A stretch of 63,634 bases of DNA, the filler included, from Octopus bimaculoides (taxonomy: Eukaryota): assembly GCF_001194135.2 (NCBI RefSeq). It is 4 parts of 3 records of this genome, joined end to end, with 100 filler letters (N's around TTAATTAATTAA, not from the genome) between each part and the next. Parts side by side here need not be neighbours in the genome. Positions count along the whole stretch, not along the records: positions 1 to 22,540 come from NC_068982.1; positions 22,641 to 51,810 come from NC_068982.1; 2 more parts are not named here. One strand, 5' to 3'. The notes under the pieces are model-generated. The model was not told where the DNA came from. It saw only the letters and a list, made by a program, of their open reading frames with translations, and made no database searches. Positions 7,380-40,372 of the stretch are shown here, in pieces (within the stretch, counting starts at the first letter, position 1; every line of letters begins with the position of its first letter). Both the position numbers and the translations under genes were made by a program.

Positions 7380-7769
7380 GTAAGCCTTTTTTTTTTGTCA
7401 TCAATTTATCTTTATTCATCTACTTTTGAATTGGGTTCTGTTGAAAAACTTGTCTTTTCTCTTTTCTTTGTTTCAGTGATTAGACTGTGGCCATGCTGGG
7501 GCACTGCCCTGAAGAACTTTGAGTCAAACGAATCTATTCTAGTACTTATTTTTTTAAAATCCTGGTGCTTATTCTATCAGTCACTTTTGCCAAACCACTG
7601 AGTTATGGGAACATAAACACACCAACACTGGTTGTCAAGCAATGTTAGGGAACAAACATAGACACAAAGATACAGATGCATATCAGAGGGAAAAGGACAA
7701 CAAAAACCAAGGCAGGACGAGTATCTCAAGTCATTTAGAATAATTTAATTAAGGTAAGGTGAATTTTAA

Positions 7770-7846
7770 GTCTTACAGCTGTTTCTCAGACATCCCAAGT
7801 GATAGGCTAGCAATGTCTATACACTGGGTATTCCATCATCAGAGAC
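7770..7846 (-). ncRNA. Minimal type I hammerhead ribozyme motif (intact core, imperfect proximal helix II)
   Basis: Minus strand GTCT-CTGATGA-[50 nt helix II]-GAAA-CAGCTG-TA|AGAC; helix I GTCT/AGAC, palindromic helix III ACAG/CTGT, predicted cut between 7774 and 7773. Confidence 0.72.
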
Positions 7847-8023
7847 AAGGTTTTCATGAAAGTTCTAGGCAGGGGAATTCACAGTTTATAAACAATAAAA
7901 TAGGAGATAGAAGAATAGTTTTCTATCTACTATTTTATTTTTCTATTTATTATTCTTCCATCTACAATTTTATACCTTATAAACTGAATTTCCCTGTATA
8001 GAATTTTCATACATACTCACCTT

Positions 8024-8099
8024 GTCTCTGATGGCAAAATACCCAGTGTATGGACATGCCAGCTTATCATTTGGGATATCACAGAAACAGTTGTTAGAC
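8024..8099 (+). ncRNA. Degenerate hammerhead motif (sister arm)
   Basis: GTCT-CTGATGG-...-GAAA-CAGTTG-TT|AGAC; the A9>G change is predicted to inactivate it. Confidence 0.6.
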
Positions 8100-8428
8100 T
8101 TCAAATTCACATTAACCTAATTAAATATTCTAAATGACTCAAGAAGCTTGTCCTGCCTTGGTTTTGATATCTTTTTCCTCTAATATAATATATACCTGCT
8201 AACTCCGAAGCCTACTACGGATCCCTAGCTCCAGCCTCAGCTGTGAATTTGGAACCTAACGGTTGACCAATTATAGCACTTACTCAATGTACCTATTTGT
8301 TTAGATCACCAGTGAAGTAAACCCCTTATATTCTCTCCCTGCACACACGCATATATACAAATGATTAAAGACGTAACATTTTTCTATTTTATTTAAAAAC
8401 TGCTCACTGGAATTCAAAGAAATTTTCA

Positions 8429-9820
8429 CAGAATGATGGCAACAGTTATATGCCCATGATGTGTAAAAAGACGTGCGGTTCTGTAAAACAACACAGAAAC
8501 TATGGCCATTTACCAAATTTAAATAAACTTTCACCGTTTCAAATTATTAGCAAGGTGTAATTAAAACTTATGTAAACAAGAAAATACCAATTTAATTGTT
8601 TAATGTACACGCTAGAATGAACAGATACAGTCATAAACATGGAAGAAATAGAAATAAAGAAGTCAGCAGCATTCAGAAACGAGAGGTGAGCTGGTTAGGA
8701 TTTGTTTGAACTAAGTTGGAAATGGTTCATGGAAGATACTCATTTCTGGATTTCCTTTGATCTTATACCATGGGATACATCCACTGTTGCCTGCCACAGT
8801 CCATCCTTGCTTCTAAATTGGTGTTTATTCTCGTAAACTCATTGCTTTAGAATACTCCACAAATTTTCTATTGGATTTAAGTCAGAACAAGCAGGCCACT
8901 TCATCTTCGAAGGTTCACAGAAGCCTAATTGTTGCAGATACTCTGTAGTTTTCTTTGCTGAGTGTAAGGGTGCATTATCTTGCATGAATATTATGGTTGC
9001 CTTGAAGGTGATCCTTTGCTTTTTCAACTAAGATTCAAGGTGCTCCCTCAGAAAGACTATATAAGCATCTGCAGTCATTTTAGCACTGTCAGGCTCCTTC
9101 CAAGGACCAACCATAATGCCTTAAATAATACCTACCCAAATCATAATGTCTCCTCCCCATTGTTGGTGTCTCAAACATTGATGATGCTCTTGTCCATTTA
9201 CATCTCATCCCTTGCTCAGGTCCATTAAGTGTAGCACAAGTTTCGTCCATAAACAAAGCGTGTGGAAAATTGACCTTCATGTTATCTTTTGCCCATTTCA
9301 GACAATTTTGTTTGAGGGAAGCATTTCAACTGTCATTGGTTTATCAACCTTTTTCAGAAGACGACTTCAGGTAATTCTGCACACAGTTGTTTCACCAATG
9401 CACCTGAAATGTCGCCTGACCCTTGTTGGCTCCTTTACGTATCTTCGTAGGAGATGTATCAAATTTTTTCACAGATTGGTGATATCATCATCATCATCAT
9501 CGTTTAACGTCCGCTTTCCATGCTAGCATGAAAAGCGGACGTTAAACGACGACGATGATGATGATATCACCAATCTGTGAAAAAATATCTTTCTAATTAT
9601 TTTAAATATTTCTAATGTGGAGTTCAGAAGTAATAACAGATTTCTCTGAAGCAGTTAAGTCACATTTACGACCCATAATTACACAATTATCAGACCACTC
9701 TTAATTTGGAACACTGAAAGTTTGTGGAAACCATGCAAATGGCTGCGATTTGTTTACACTTGTGCAAAACCTCATGTTTTTTTTATGCACCACGTGTATA
9801 TAGCTGTTACCATCATTCTG
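8429..9820 (-). mobile_element. Full-length degenerate Tc1 (DD34E-type) transposon
   Basis: TIRs CAGAATGATGG(C/T)AACAG(T/C)TATA at 8429 and 9820, flanked by CA and TA; MGRKCDLTASEK start near 9676; LFMDE..., FMQDNAPLHSAK, WPACSDLNPIENLWSILK. Confidence 0.9.
9463..9586. repeat. 124-bp spacer-less palindrome: RTE 3' tip plus target DNA folded back
   Basis: 62-bp arms with 3 mismatches, centred on CATGCT|AGCATG (9524/9525). Confidence 0.93.
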
Positions 9821-10146
9821 TAGAAATTTCATTGAATTTCAAACGAGTAGTTTTTAAATAGAATAAACAAATGTAATATTATTAATAATTTGAAATGCAG
9901 AGATGGCAAGGGTGCATGAGATGGAGTGGGATCACAGGCAGGGCTGATAGAGAAAAGAAGCTTTATATGTGTAGGAGTAGTTTGCAATAAAAGTACCCTA
10001 ATGTTTAATGGTTCCCTCAAAGGAGTCGATAGCGTGTGTCACCTCGGTCAATAATTTGTTCCTGTTTATATAACTTGCTGCAATATTCATTTATAGACAC
10101 TCGTTCTTATAGTGTATTTAGAGGTACTTATGTCTTCTTTACACAG

Positions 10147-37814: not shown

Positions 37815-38030
37815 TTCTAAGGCGGTGAGCTGCCAGAGTGGTTACCACGACGGAGAAAATTTTTAACGACATTTCGTTCCGACTCTATATATTCCGAGTT
37901 CAAACTCCACCGAGGTCGACTTAGTATTTCTTTATTTCCTAGTCGATAACGTAAACACCAGTTGAACATGGAGTCGATCTAATTGATTTTCGCTCCCAAT
38001 AAAATTACTGGCCTTGTGTTAAAGTTTGAC
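37815..38030 (+). mobile_element. SINE family D
   Basis: TAAGGCGGTGAGCTGCCAGA...CCGAGTTCAAACTCCACCGAGGTCGAC. Confidence 0.75.
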
Positions 38031-38595
38031 ACCATTATTGTATAAATCTCTGCTATTATCTAAGATGGAAGGTACTCATGTATGAGTAATATTCTGCCTC
38101 CTTTGCTATATACAAAACTACATCATGCGATAGAAGCATTCCTTTCTTAACGTGGTACGGTGTATATTCAATGAGATTTTCGCTGACTTCGCTCGCAGTT
38201 CGTGTGACCGGGACATATTCATTCCATTATCTGTTCATTTCGCACTTTATTTTTTTTTGTAAACATTGTGTTTCAGCATATGTGTGTGTGTATATATATG
38301 TATATATATATAGGTATGGTGATGTAAACAGGGAAAATGGAACTCAAAATATGTGTATATGTATATTTCTATTAATATTTAGCGGAAGCAACAGAGTGAC
38401 TCAAGGTCCCAGAGTTTTGTTCGTTGAGAACATTGCCATTACACTCCAAATCACGCTCTTGCTTCCACTAAATACACACACACATACACACACACACACA
38501 CACACACACACACACACACACACACACACACACACACACACACACACACACACACACACACACACACACACACACACACACACACACACACACAC

Positions 38596-38760
38596 TTGTG
38601 TGCTACTTTCAGTTTCCGTCTACCGAATCCACTCACAAGGCTCTGGTCGGCCCGCTGCTATAGTAGAAGACACATGCCCAAGGTGTCACGCAGTGGGACG
38701 GAACCTGGAGCCATGTGGTTGGTAAGGAATCTATTTACCACACAGCCACTCCGGCACCTA
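38596..38760 (-). mobile_element. SINE family B head
   Basis: TTTCAGTTTCCGTCTACCGAATCCACTCACAAGG...ACCACACAGCCACTCC. Confidence 0.8.
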
Positions 38761-39371
38761 TATACATATATCCTTATTAAATTTGATTCTGTTTTTGTTT
38801 TTAATTTCTATAATTTTCTTAAATATAACACAATCATCTCCTTTTCTTTCTTTTGAGTTTTTCATCCTTGCTTTGGATTTTCCTCCTTTCTTTCGTTCGT
38901 TTGCAAATAATTTGGGATCCGGTTGTTTTGCAACATGTAAACGCAACTATTAATAATGCCATTCTCTATCTAGCCTGAAATTCACACCTCAAAAAATATG
39001 TGTGTATGTATGTATGTATGTATGTATGTATGTATGTATGTATGTATCTATCTATCTATAACACAATCATCTTTTCTGTCTTTTGACTTTTGACTAAAAT
39101 GTTCATGATAAAATTATTCTAGCATTTTCTAACTTGTCTTATTGTCCTTATATATATACATATGGAGAGAGAGTGTTAGATAGAGAGGTAAATAAATAGA
39201 TATGTACATGTTTCTTTCTTTGAGCCTCTTCATCTTTCCATTTTCTATAAATTTCAACTGTATATATATATATATATATATATATATATATATATATATA
39301 TATATATAAATTAACAGAAGGAGTTAAAAATCCAAGGTTGTGAAAGATTTCAGAACATTTATAAACAGAAG

Positions 39372-39419
39372 GACTTACAGCTGTTTCTGGGATATTTTAT
39401 ATATCCCTTCATTGGAGAC
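39372..39419 (-). ncRNA. Degenerate hammerhead motif related to the 7770 copy
   Basis: GTCT-CCAATGA-A-GGGATAT(ATAAA)ATATCCC-A-GAAA-CAGCTG-TA|AGTC; perfect 7-bp helix II, mutated core. Confidence 0.65.
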
Positions 39420-39989
39420 GGTGTGAGAAAATGGTTATGCAATGGTTATTCTAGATGTGATATGGAATAGAGAGTGAAGTAGAGGAATGAATACAGACGT
39501 GAGATATGCGGGAATATTGTATCTGCAGTTCCATTATTGAGGTAGAATGGTATACAAATAAGATTCCTGTACCTTGTGATTACTATTAATTAATAATATA
39601 TATNNNNNNNNNNATACATATATATACATTATTATTATTAATTAATTAATTAATAGTAGGAGATGGATTTCGTATTAGACTTTATTAGGTACACCATTTA
39701 TTTCGACCCATCACTGTGCCGGTGTTCTACTCGACATTTAATCACTCTAATCGAATTATACTTATTTGTCCAAATTATTTATAATAATAATTATTATTAT
39801 TATTATTATCATCATATATGTGTGTGTGTGTGTGTGTCTTTGTGTTTGTGTGTGTCTCTGTATCCATGCCCCTCACCACAGCTTGACAACCAATATTAAT
39901 CTGTTTACGTTTCCTTTTAAGGCAGCGGGCTGATATATATAAATACACATTATGTACAAGGTATCACCAACGAGCGAATATCACGTAAA

Positions 39990-40372
39990 CACACGAGAGA
40001 TAAGTACTGGAAAAATAAGAACGGGACATCAACAACGAGTGAAAAATACGTAAACACATAACAAGAGACAAGTATCAAAAAAAGTCGAACACCTCAGTTG
40101 TCGACTGTTTCTTACTCCCTATTTCGAGCTTTCAACGACGATATAGGAAAACTTCATAAGACAGCAGCATCCAGAAATTTTAAAAATATAAAACTCGTAG
40201 AGAGTTAGGGCTTCGAACAAACAGCAACAGAGTGGATGTACAGAGTAAGCAATCGATGAAGACAAACATTAAGGGCTGTTAGGCCAAAACAGTCGACAAC
40301 TGAGGAGGAATATTTTTCGTTGTTGATGTCCCATTGTTATTGTCTATTTTTTCGTATTTTTCCCTGTATTTA
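39990..40372. repeat. Inverted pair of short units, each with a degenerate HHR-like core
   Basis: CCTCAGTTGTCGACTGTTT vs AAACAGTCGACAACTGAGG, and GGGACATCAACAACGA vs TCGTTGTTGATGTCCC. Confidence 0.7.

Follow-up and report, generated by a model that had tools for sequence, protein, structure and literature searches.

Hammerhead ribozymes are a described component of Penelope-like elements (PLEs), and one has been reported from Octopus bimaculoides itself, in the element Hydra-1_oBim (Craig et al. 2021, PMC8557442, File S2). PLE hammerheads have been recorded in opposite-strand pairs 100-700 bp apart (PMC4209133), and PLEs are described as leaving inverted 5'-truncated copies, as showing a 5' fold-back and an optional tail extension, and as favouring microsatellite targets (PMC8557442). 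Type I hammerheads are also found in the SMalpha elements of Schistosoma (review PMC6765202) and in the non-LTR retrozymes (PMC7229834; bioRxiv 2026.07.22.740005), and in another cephalopod, the giant squid, 235 Rfam hammerheads have been counted (PMC6962438). Here, the hammerhead-like motifs in 63,634 nucleotides of O. bimaculoides DNA (assembly GCF_001194135.2; four parts of three records joined end to end, hereafter the window) were analysed, an original prediction having read them as one family of self-cleaving elements in several architectures. The window is repeat-rich animal DNA of 33% GC that includes 8117 N. It is considered probable (about 0.62) that most of the motifs are tail stubs of PLEs, and that one of them, in the short interspersed element (SINE)-like insertion termed B, belongs to a likely promoter-bearing parasite of PLEs.

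Results

Hammerhead motifs and search models

The sites are labelled A1 (7770-7846, minus strand), A2 (8024-8099, plus), B (31841-31884, minus), C (39372-39419, minus), D1/D2 (40.1-40.3 kb) and E (51177-51254, minus). The Rfam models, which the original prediction had named as a means of checking it, matched no hammerhead in the whole window (E<=5) and none in the A and B stretches (E<=10). A loose hammerhead descriptor was not discriminating, as 4 of 8 shuffles gave a match as good as A1 or B. Tighter descriptors, which are post hoc in that they were composed after the hits were known, were scored against 1238 shuffled windows. A perfect core with a palindromic helix III and a helix I of at least 4 bp was found in 27 of these, an A1-like motif (8-nt palindrome) in 1, a B-like motif in 13 and both together in none.

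An independent test set was provided by 78 Hydra-type PLE loci from metagenomes (from the best 80 of 480 confirmed stretches), in which a hammerhead was present in 56. The triplet was GUA in 38 of 48 distinct motifs and GUU in 6, and in 33 loci the hammerhead lay 73-292 nt behind the open reading frame (ORF). Covariation counted on this set is partly circular, its members having been chosen for pairing, and was not used as evidence. A covariance model built only from 50 distinct Hydra-clade PLE hammerheads gave 18 matches in the window at E<=10, with A1 at the top (24.8 bits, E 4.6e-5), followed by B (E 0.36); neither D1 nor D2 was among them. The cores originally predicted were thus upheld at A, B and C, best of all at A1, while D1 proved weak and D2 was reduced to a 3' half.

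The view that all of these represent one family was not borne out, as no alignment among A, B, C and D extends beyond the ribozyme core (z up to 2.7), whereas the paired copies do align (A1/A2, z 62; D1/D2, z 12.9). The motifs have at least three origins and are mostly real but decayed. Cofolding paired the palindromes of A1, B and C with one another (a prediction, not an activity test).

Hydra-type motifs and PLE remnants

The motifs other than B, and the PLE coding remnants, are as follows.

7668..7917, minus: A1 arm, likely a Hydra-type PLE's 3' end that is 5'-truncated; outward it passes into TA-rich sequence
7951..8197, plus: A2 arm, inverted head-to-head partner of A1
7770..7846, minus: A1 hammerhead of type I, with its core at 7842-7836 and 7785-7782 and its palindromic helix III at 7782-7775
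8024..8099, plus: A2 hammerhead, decayed (A9G, C-to-U in helix III, H17=U)
39309..39419, minus: C, Hydra-type hammerhead with a broken core (39415-39409) and a 7-bp helix II
40095..40168, minus: D1, possible decayed hammerhead, weak, with an 11-bp helix II and a broken first core
40286..40372, plus: D2, inverted partner of D1, starting at the GAAA half and entering an assembly gap
51177..51254, minus: E, decayed Hydra-type hammerhead (G8A, G12A; ACUA-U-UAGU + A)
30402..32791, plus: broken Hydra-clade PLE ORF, host of B; reverse transcriptase (RT) with YRDD, DKT, CxCx5C linker and start of GIY-YIG
51496..51579, minus: second Hydra-clade PLE ORF, represented by its C-terminal end (profile E 1e-6)

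The A1 and A2 arms, each of about 250 bp with TA-rich outer ends, were identical at 201 of 243 aligned bases (83%). The spacer between them includes a short hairpin (7895-7940). In A1, CUGAUGA and GAAA are perfect, helix I has 4 bp, helix III is the palindrome ACAG/CUGU and the triplet is GUA, with a predicted cut after 7774; helix II is irregular and spans 50 nt. A2 scored E 5.3 on its own against the Hydra model, and its helix III is an imperfect palindrome because of the C-to-U change, so that a loop-less palindromic helix III, predicted for the four clearer cores, holds for A1, B and C only.

Motif C (39372-39419) carries the core changes U4C and G5A and one mismatch in helix I, and the sequence runs for about 65 nt further before reaching (TA)24. 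It has an exact 14-mer in common with A1 (two matches were obtained in 0 of 100 shuffles), and its assignment as Hydra-type is by this 14-mer only, the covariance model giving E 9.1. Since no alignment with A was obtained for the flanks of C (z 1.6 and 2.3), C is a relative of A and not a member of the same family. In D1, an 11-bp hairpin precedes GAAAC-A-GUC, and the descriptor tailor-made for it was matched by 40 of 2095 shuffles. D2 was rejected as a complete ribozyme, only the 3' half being present and common to D1. Motif E, which the original prediction had missed, lies about 250 nt behind the Hydra ORF end at 51.5 kb, within the range of the 33 metagenomic loci; its model score was E 5.5 in the whole window and E 0.034 in 401 nt, the motif having first been noticed in the whole-window list.

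The PLE remnant at 30.4-32.8 kb was recognised at a domain E value of 1e-67, with an RT similar to Hydra proteins, and was placed in the Hydra clade by motifs as in PMC8557442 and by comparison by eye with the Hydra-1_Obim protein. Its closest named relative is from Argonauta. A long low-complexity stretch (32110-32270) lies between its RT thumb and linker, and likewise in the Argonauta relative P0003. The element's own 3' end and hammerhead were not found. Of the predicted PLE ORF remnants, those at 30.4 and 51.5 kb were confirmed, the latter as a C-terminal end; the one at 62.6 kb was rejected (best tblastn E 0.7). Nearby, an inverted pair with arms of about 70 bp and outward TA ends (62755-62890), in which neither a hammerhead nor a PLE ORF was found, is perhaps another head-to-head stub. 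Pfam gave no name to any PLE piece or to its relatives, the Hydra profile confirmed none among viral contigs, and a search of RNA runs listed none with 30300-31930, a result that is uninformative on expression.

The link to PLEs that had been predicted was strengthened. A, C and E resemble the Hydra-clade hammerheads of PMC8557442 in their 4-bp helix III (ACAG/CUGU or ACUA/UAGU) and GUA triplet, and TA-rich targets, an inverted 5'-truncated partner and, for E, a place behind the ORF are likewise features of that clade (PMC8557442). One metagenomic Hydra PLE (L003) carries the loop-less ACAG/CUGU + A of A1 in both terminal repeats. In other respects the motifs differ: the sequence of the Hydra-1_oBim motif was seen, by eye, in none of A, C and E; 45-50 nt separate the cores in A and E, against 10-25 nt in the metagenomic set; and the loop-less helix III of A and C recurred in only 1 of the 48 distinct metagenomic motifs. 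Many of the 78 loci also showed, by eye, a GCUC...GAGCAC-like motif 40-70 nt past the hammerhead cut site, possibly a conserved hairpin at the end of Hydra PLEs.

From these features A, C and E are likely dead tails of Hydra-type PLEs; no ORF is joined to A or C, and for these two a PLE-tail origin is therefore inferred. As PLE hammerheads, one of them in octopus, are already known, A, C, D and E add annotation and not biology.

Element B

B, whose antisense insertion in the 30.4-kb PLE and tRNA-like head had both been overlooked, has the following parts.

31786..32108, minus: B, SINE-like insertion of 323 bp that interrupts the PLE between profile positions 471 and 477 and runs antisense to it
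32086..32105, plus: 5' fold-back, a 20-nt inverted copy of the head start (21-bp hairpin, z -6.2)
32007..32081, minus: tRNA-like head, with A box 32074-32064, anticodon-like loop (UCU) 32050-32044 and B box 32031-32020
31936..32006, minus: (AAT)24
31840..31885, minus: type I hammerhead of minimal form, with its core at 31880-31874, GAAAC/GU, and a cut predicted after 31845 (GUU)
31786..31844, minus: 3' tail, without about 30 family bases found in many other copies (loose ends; P0122)

The insertion is bordered by a duplication of 3-4 nt, (C)AC, and the flanking PLE frames agree once the 323 bp are discounted. Its order from 5' to 3' is fold-back, tRNA-like head, (AAT)24, spacer, ribozyme and tail. 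The A and B boxes stand at tRNA spacing, as judged by eye from the sequence. The ribozyme of this copy carries G8A, with a helix I of 5 bp, a helix II of 6 bp, a helix III of AC/GU and the triplet GUU, and both helix I and helix II formed in a fold prediction (z -1.8). A short repeated unit of 9 nt occurs at the 3' end, and the sense strand holds no run of four T. B was rejected as a terminal repeat of the 30.4-kb PLE, as it lies on the opposite strand and inside the ORF. A search of the window found no other piece of its head or ribozyme part standing alone. Two further tRNA-headed SINE families without a hammerhead were noted, one at 3959-4057 and 52004-52150, the other at 33990-34175, 38602-38771, 45939-46124, 55114-55203 and 62933-63061.

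The ribozyme of B conforms to the consensus for minimal hammerhead ribozymes (min-HHRs) of Cervera and de la Pena (2014, PMC4209133), with an extra base after A9, G10.1-C11.1, a 6-bp helix II, a 5-bp helix I, palindromic positions 15.2/16.2 and no loop 3. A limpet min-HHR has the same CAC...GAAAC-GU-U-GUG frame (PMC4209133), the published Hydra-1_oBim hammerhead has the same GUU triplet, and a B-type core (GAAAC/GU-U) was found in the 3' untranslated region of a Neptune-like PLE (L022, clade by motif and by eye). Unlike the metazoan PLE min-HHRs, B does not stand beside a PLE ORF of its own but, in this copy, behind a tRNA-like head and (AAT)n.

The B family in contigs and RNA

Positions 31600-31935 were compared with two RNA runs from a single study, of each of which about 6% was read, and with two contig sets (organisms A and B); read and contig data cover B only, and not A, C or D. 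Matching contigs numbered 16,073 in organism A and 13,664 in organism B, nearly all on the B part and with varied flanks. From the summed depth, about 5,000 to 150,000 copies were estimated, a rough bound given that depth is no copy number. The G8 that is changed in the present copy was restored in 2067 of 2197 and 1761 of 1872 RNA reads (94%) as well as in 90% of the contig depth for each organism, while the free position N7 varied (7-29%) and the triplet was GUU only, among the rows listed. Two classes of 3' end were seen, with and without the additional 30 or so bases. In one contig of organism B, ribozyme units were linked by a 140-nt tandem joint, which takes in 9 letters of the head hairpin.

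In contig depth, 8-12% differed at core CpGs and 3-13% at CpGs outside the core; in RNA reads the figures were 15-30% and 15-24%, respectively. As core CpGs decay like the others and the RNA shows no pile-up of cleavage ends, the dispersed B copies look dead; they decay neutrally while the master is intact. In the RNA runs, the B part was matched by 6177 records out of 12.9 million in one and 4981 out of 12.0 million in the other, equally on both strands, against 0-2 reads for the unique flank. Most of this RNA is probably read-through of dispersed copies (library strandedness not given).

Relatives of B read as pseudo-proteins

When one reading frame of B was searched as a pseudo-protein, 17 proteins were recovered at E<=0.001, of which P0128 and P0132 were unrelated repeats and were left out. 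Four were close copies of B, two annotated in O. bimaculoides and two from Logan. The octopus pseudo-proteins read P-D-E/D-G-W, which fits an intact B core. A second family comprised 11 proteins (four were looked up, all from ENA assemblies), nine of them with two or more units, although multi-unit proteins are favoured by this kind of search. The units were spaced 43 aa (129 nt) apart in 8 of 11 intervals, and over 21 units the R/Q/W spectra point to CGG codons in each side of helix II, from which this family would have a C-G pair in helix II where B has U-A.

No match came from word searches that used two further reading frames of B, and B patterns gave 0 matches in metagenome, viral and prokaryote collections. 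A back-translation fit for the tRNA-like head in the tandem relatives was not significant (in the best case, 6 of 109,626 sites scored as well). One O. bimaculoides model of a dystrobrevin-beta isoform (P0133) starts with the ribozyme frame of B, a possible exonisation or annotation artefact.

Other features of the window

A near-perfect palindrome with 55-bp arms (9468-9581) derives from the (ATC)n-led start of a repeat family also present at 5.1, 11.0, 16.1, 18.4 and 22.4 kb. ORF translations, judged by eye, showed fragments of RTE-like long interspersed elements (LINEs; 1165-1532, 4982-5039, 18898-19983 (-)), a Gypsy-like RT (3337-3806, 4421-4777 (-)) and mariner-like transposases (9089-9374, 25231-25900).

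Discussion

Origin of the motifs and a possible life cycle of B

Non-autonomous self-cleaving retroelements, as originally proposed for all of the motifs, fit B only; for A, C and D, truncated 3' ends of PLEs are the simpler explanation. A PLE transcript carries its hammerhead 70-290 nt behind the ORF, as seen in 33 Hydra loci, and reverse transcription from the 3' end would often stop early; an early stop together with an inverted second copy could give head-to-head pairs such as A1/A2, and probably D1/D2, in TA-rich targets. Master copies of B would be copied into RNA by RNA polymerase III (Pol III) from their A and B boxes, across (AAU)n and through the ribozyme. With a palindromic helix III of 2 bp, the ribozyme is predicted not to work as a monomer; by analogy with published PLE hammerheads, two copies, in tandem or in trans, may pair through helix III and cut after the GUU (31845). 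The RNA would then be copied by a PLE RT-endonuclease, presumably canonical (Neptune-like) rather than Hydra, giving the 5' fold-back and the optional 3' extension of 30 nt. The B-type core of the Neptune-like locus likewise makes a canonical partner more likely than a Hydra one. Dispersed copies would afterwards decay neutrally and appear in RNA mostly by read-through. The fuller proposition, that B is a tRNA-promoter SINE, a major one in octopus, driven by PLEs and not by LINEs, whose masters carry a working, dimer-dependent hammerhead and whose wider family includes the tandem 129-nt units elsewhere, is put forward tentatively and at somewhat less than even odds.

Several results weigh against this account of the stubs and of B. 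No PLE ORF was found attached to A, C or D, their flanks matched none of the 78 Hydra loci (best E 0.035), and the whole-window scores of A2, E and C (E 5-9) are within noise. For B, no PLE with its 3' end was found, the 78 Hydra loci included. Its head reached only 13.6 bits in the Rfam tRNA model (E 5.6, threshold 29) and was not called by ARAGORN. The order of head, (AAT)n and ribozyme was seen in this copy only, a pseudo-protein search across the junction finding no second one, and the stretch compared with reads and contigs stops short of the microsatellite. The tandem joint occurs in a single contig. Neither of the two RNA runs showed a pile-up of read ends at B or, among the joints listed, tail-to-head (back-joined) reads, although small circles may be lost in RNA libraries of this type. 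Finally, the minimal PLE hammerheads in print cleave weakly even as dimers (PMC4209133).

Alternative explanations

Because the linkage of head and ribozyme was seen in one copy, the main rival is that B is a composite, an ordinary tRNA-derived SINE with an (AAT)n tail into which the truncated 3' end of a very abundant canonical PLE subsequently inserted, all motifs then being plain stubs. The ribozyme part is indeed shaped like the hammerhead of a PLE terminal repeat, and microsatellites are favoured PLE targets (PMC8557442). However, contig depth stays high up to the edge of the microsatellite, with no fading as in 5'-truncated stubs; 1454 of the 6177 and 1058 of the 4981 RNA reads cross the ends of the stretch, with depth at the right end only; the tandem contig of organism B links its ribozyme units through letters of the head hairpin; and neither part of B stands alone elsewhere in the window. 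A composite origin is therefore regarded as unlikely, though deserving of more weight than the other alternatives.

SINEs are normally partnered with LINEs, and B might instead be a LINE-driven tRNA-derived SINE whose body is a captured PLE terminal repeat, its ribozyme a non-cutting passenger. The 9-nt repeated unit at the 3' end would suit this, since tails of LINE-driven SINEs often carry short repeated units, as would the weaker triplet GUU, the decay of core CpGs at the rate of others (8-12% vs 3-13% of contig depth) and the lack of cleavage ends in the RNA. Yet GUU is also the triplet of 6 of the 48 Hydra motifs and of Hydra-1_oBim, and the fold-back and optional 30-nt extension are marks of the PLE type (PMC8557442). 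Moreover, the majority core is perfect in two species and is joined by an inferred compensatory pair relative to the tandem family, which points to selection on the master copies of B; a passenger ribozyme is regarded as improbable. The least favoured alternative, to which very little credence is given, is that A, B and C are monomers descended from tandem retrozymes that lack a promoter and make circular RNAs in abundance, as those of mussel and coral do. An origin from PLE terminal repeats, with monomers left behind, has been reported for retrozymes (bioRxiv 2026.07.22.740005), and tandem units are found in the second family and at the joint in organism B, but the window holds no tandem hammerhead unit, no back-joined reads were listed in the two runs (from libraries that may lose small circles), and B carries promoter-like boxes, while promoters are said to be missing from retrozymes (PMC7761336).

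The reading of B as a PLE-dependent, promoter-bearing element would, if true, make it a second independent origin of an SMalpha-like element and would tie SINEs directly to PLE terminal repeats and retrozymes. The family, put at thousands to about 100,000 copies, present in two or more species and having tandem relatives, would allow master and dispersed copies to be compared as a test of the role of PLE hammerheads in retrotransposition, and it places a latent, putative self-cleaving motif in about 400-500 per million RNA reads.

Comparison with known systems

Octopus tRNA-derived SINEs were reportedly described by Ohshima and Okada in 1994 under names such as OK, OR1 and OR2. Their tRNA-like head recalls that of B, a likeness of description and not of sequence, and B may be one of these families or an entry of Repbase or Dfam. 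OR2 has been described as a CORE SINE (PMC4758252). In the literature searched, which lay outside repeat databases and subscription journals, no hammerhead-bearing octopus SINE was described, although the sequence of B may be catalogued, and the only SINEs with both a promoter and a hammerhead were those of schistosomes.

The non-LTR retrozymes (PMC7229834; bioRxiv 2026.07.22.740005) are likewise non-coding, carry a type I hammerhead and are proposed to use PLE enzymes, and relatives of B are short tandems as well. Their defining traits are a tandem arrangement of units 170-400 nt long, circular RNA in abundance and the lack of a promoter; the window contains no tandem units with a hammerhead, and B has promoter-like boxes. 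The extracts of PMC7229834 make no mention of octopus, and those of bioRxiv 2026.07.22.740005 mention neither octopus nor tRNA.

The known system that B most resembles is SMalpha of Schistosoma. In SMalpha and Sjalpha, as in B, a Pol III-type promoter is followed by a type I hammerhead in a non-coding element of high copy number (review PMC6765202). SMalpha is often arranged in tandem and its cleavage has been shown (PMC6765202), whereas B, likened to it by description and not by sequence, has a minimal ribozyme of the PLE type, the triplet GUU and an internal (AAT)n, and stands here as a dispersed monomer.

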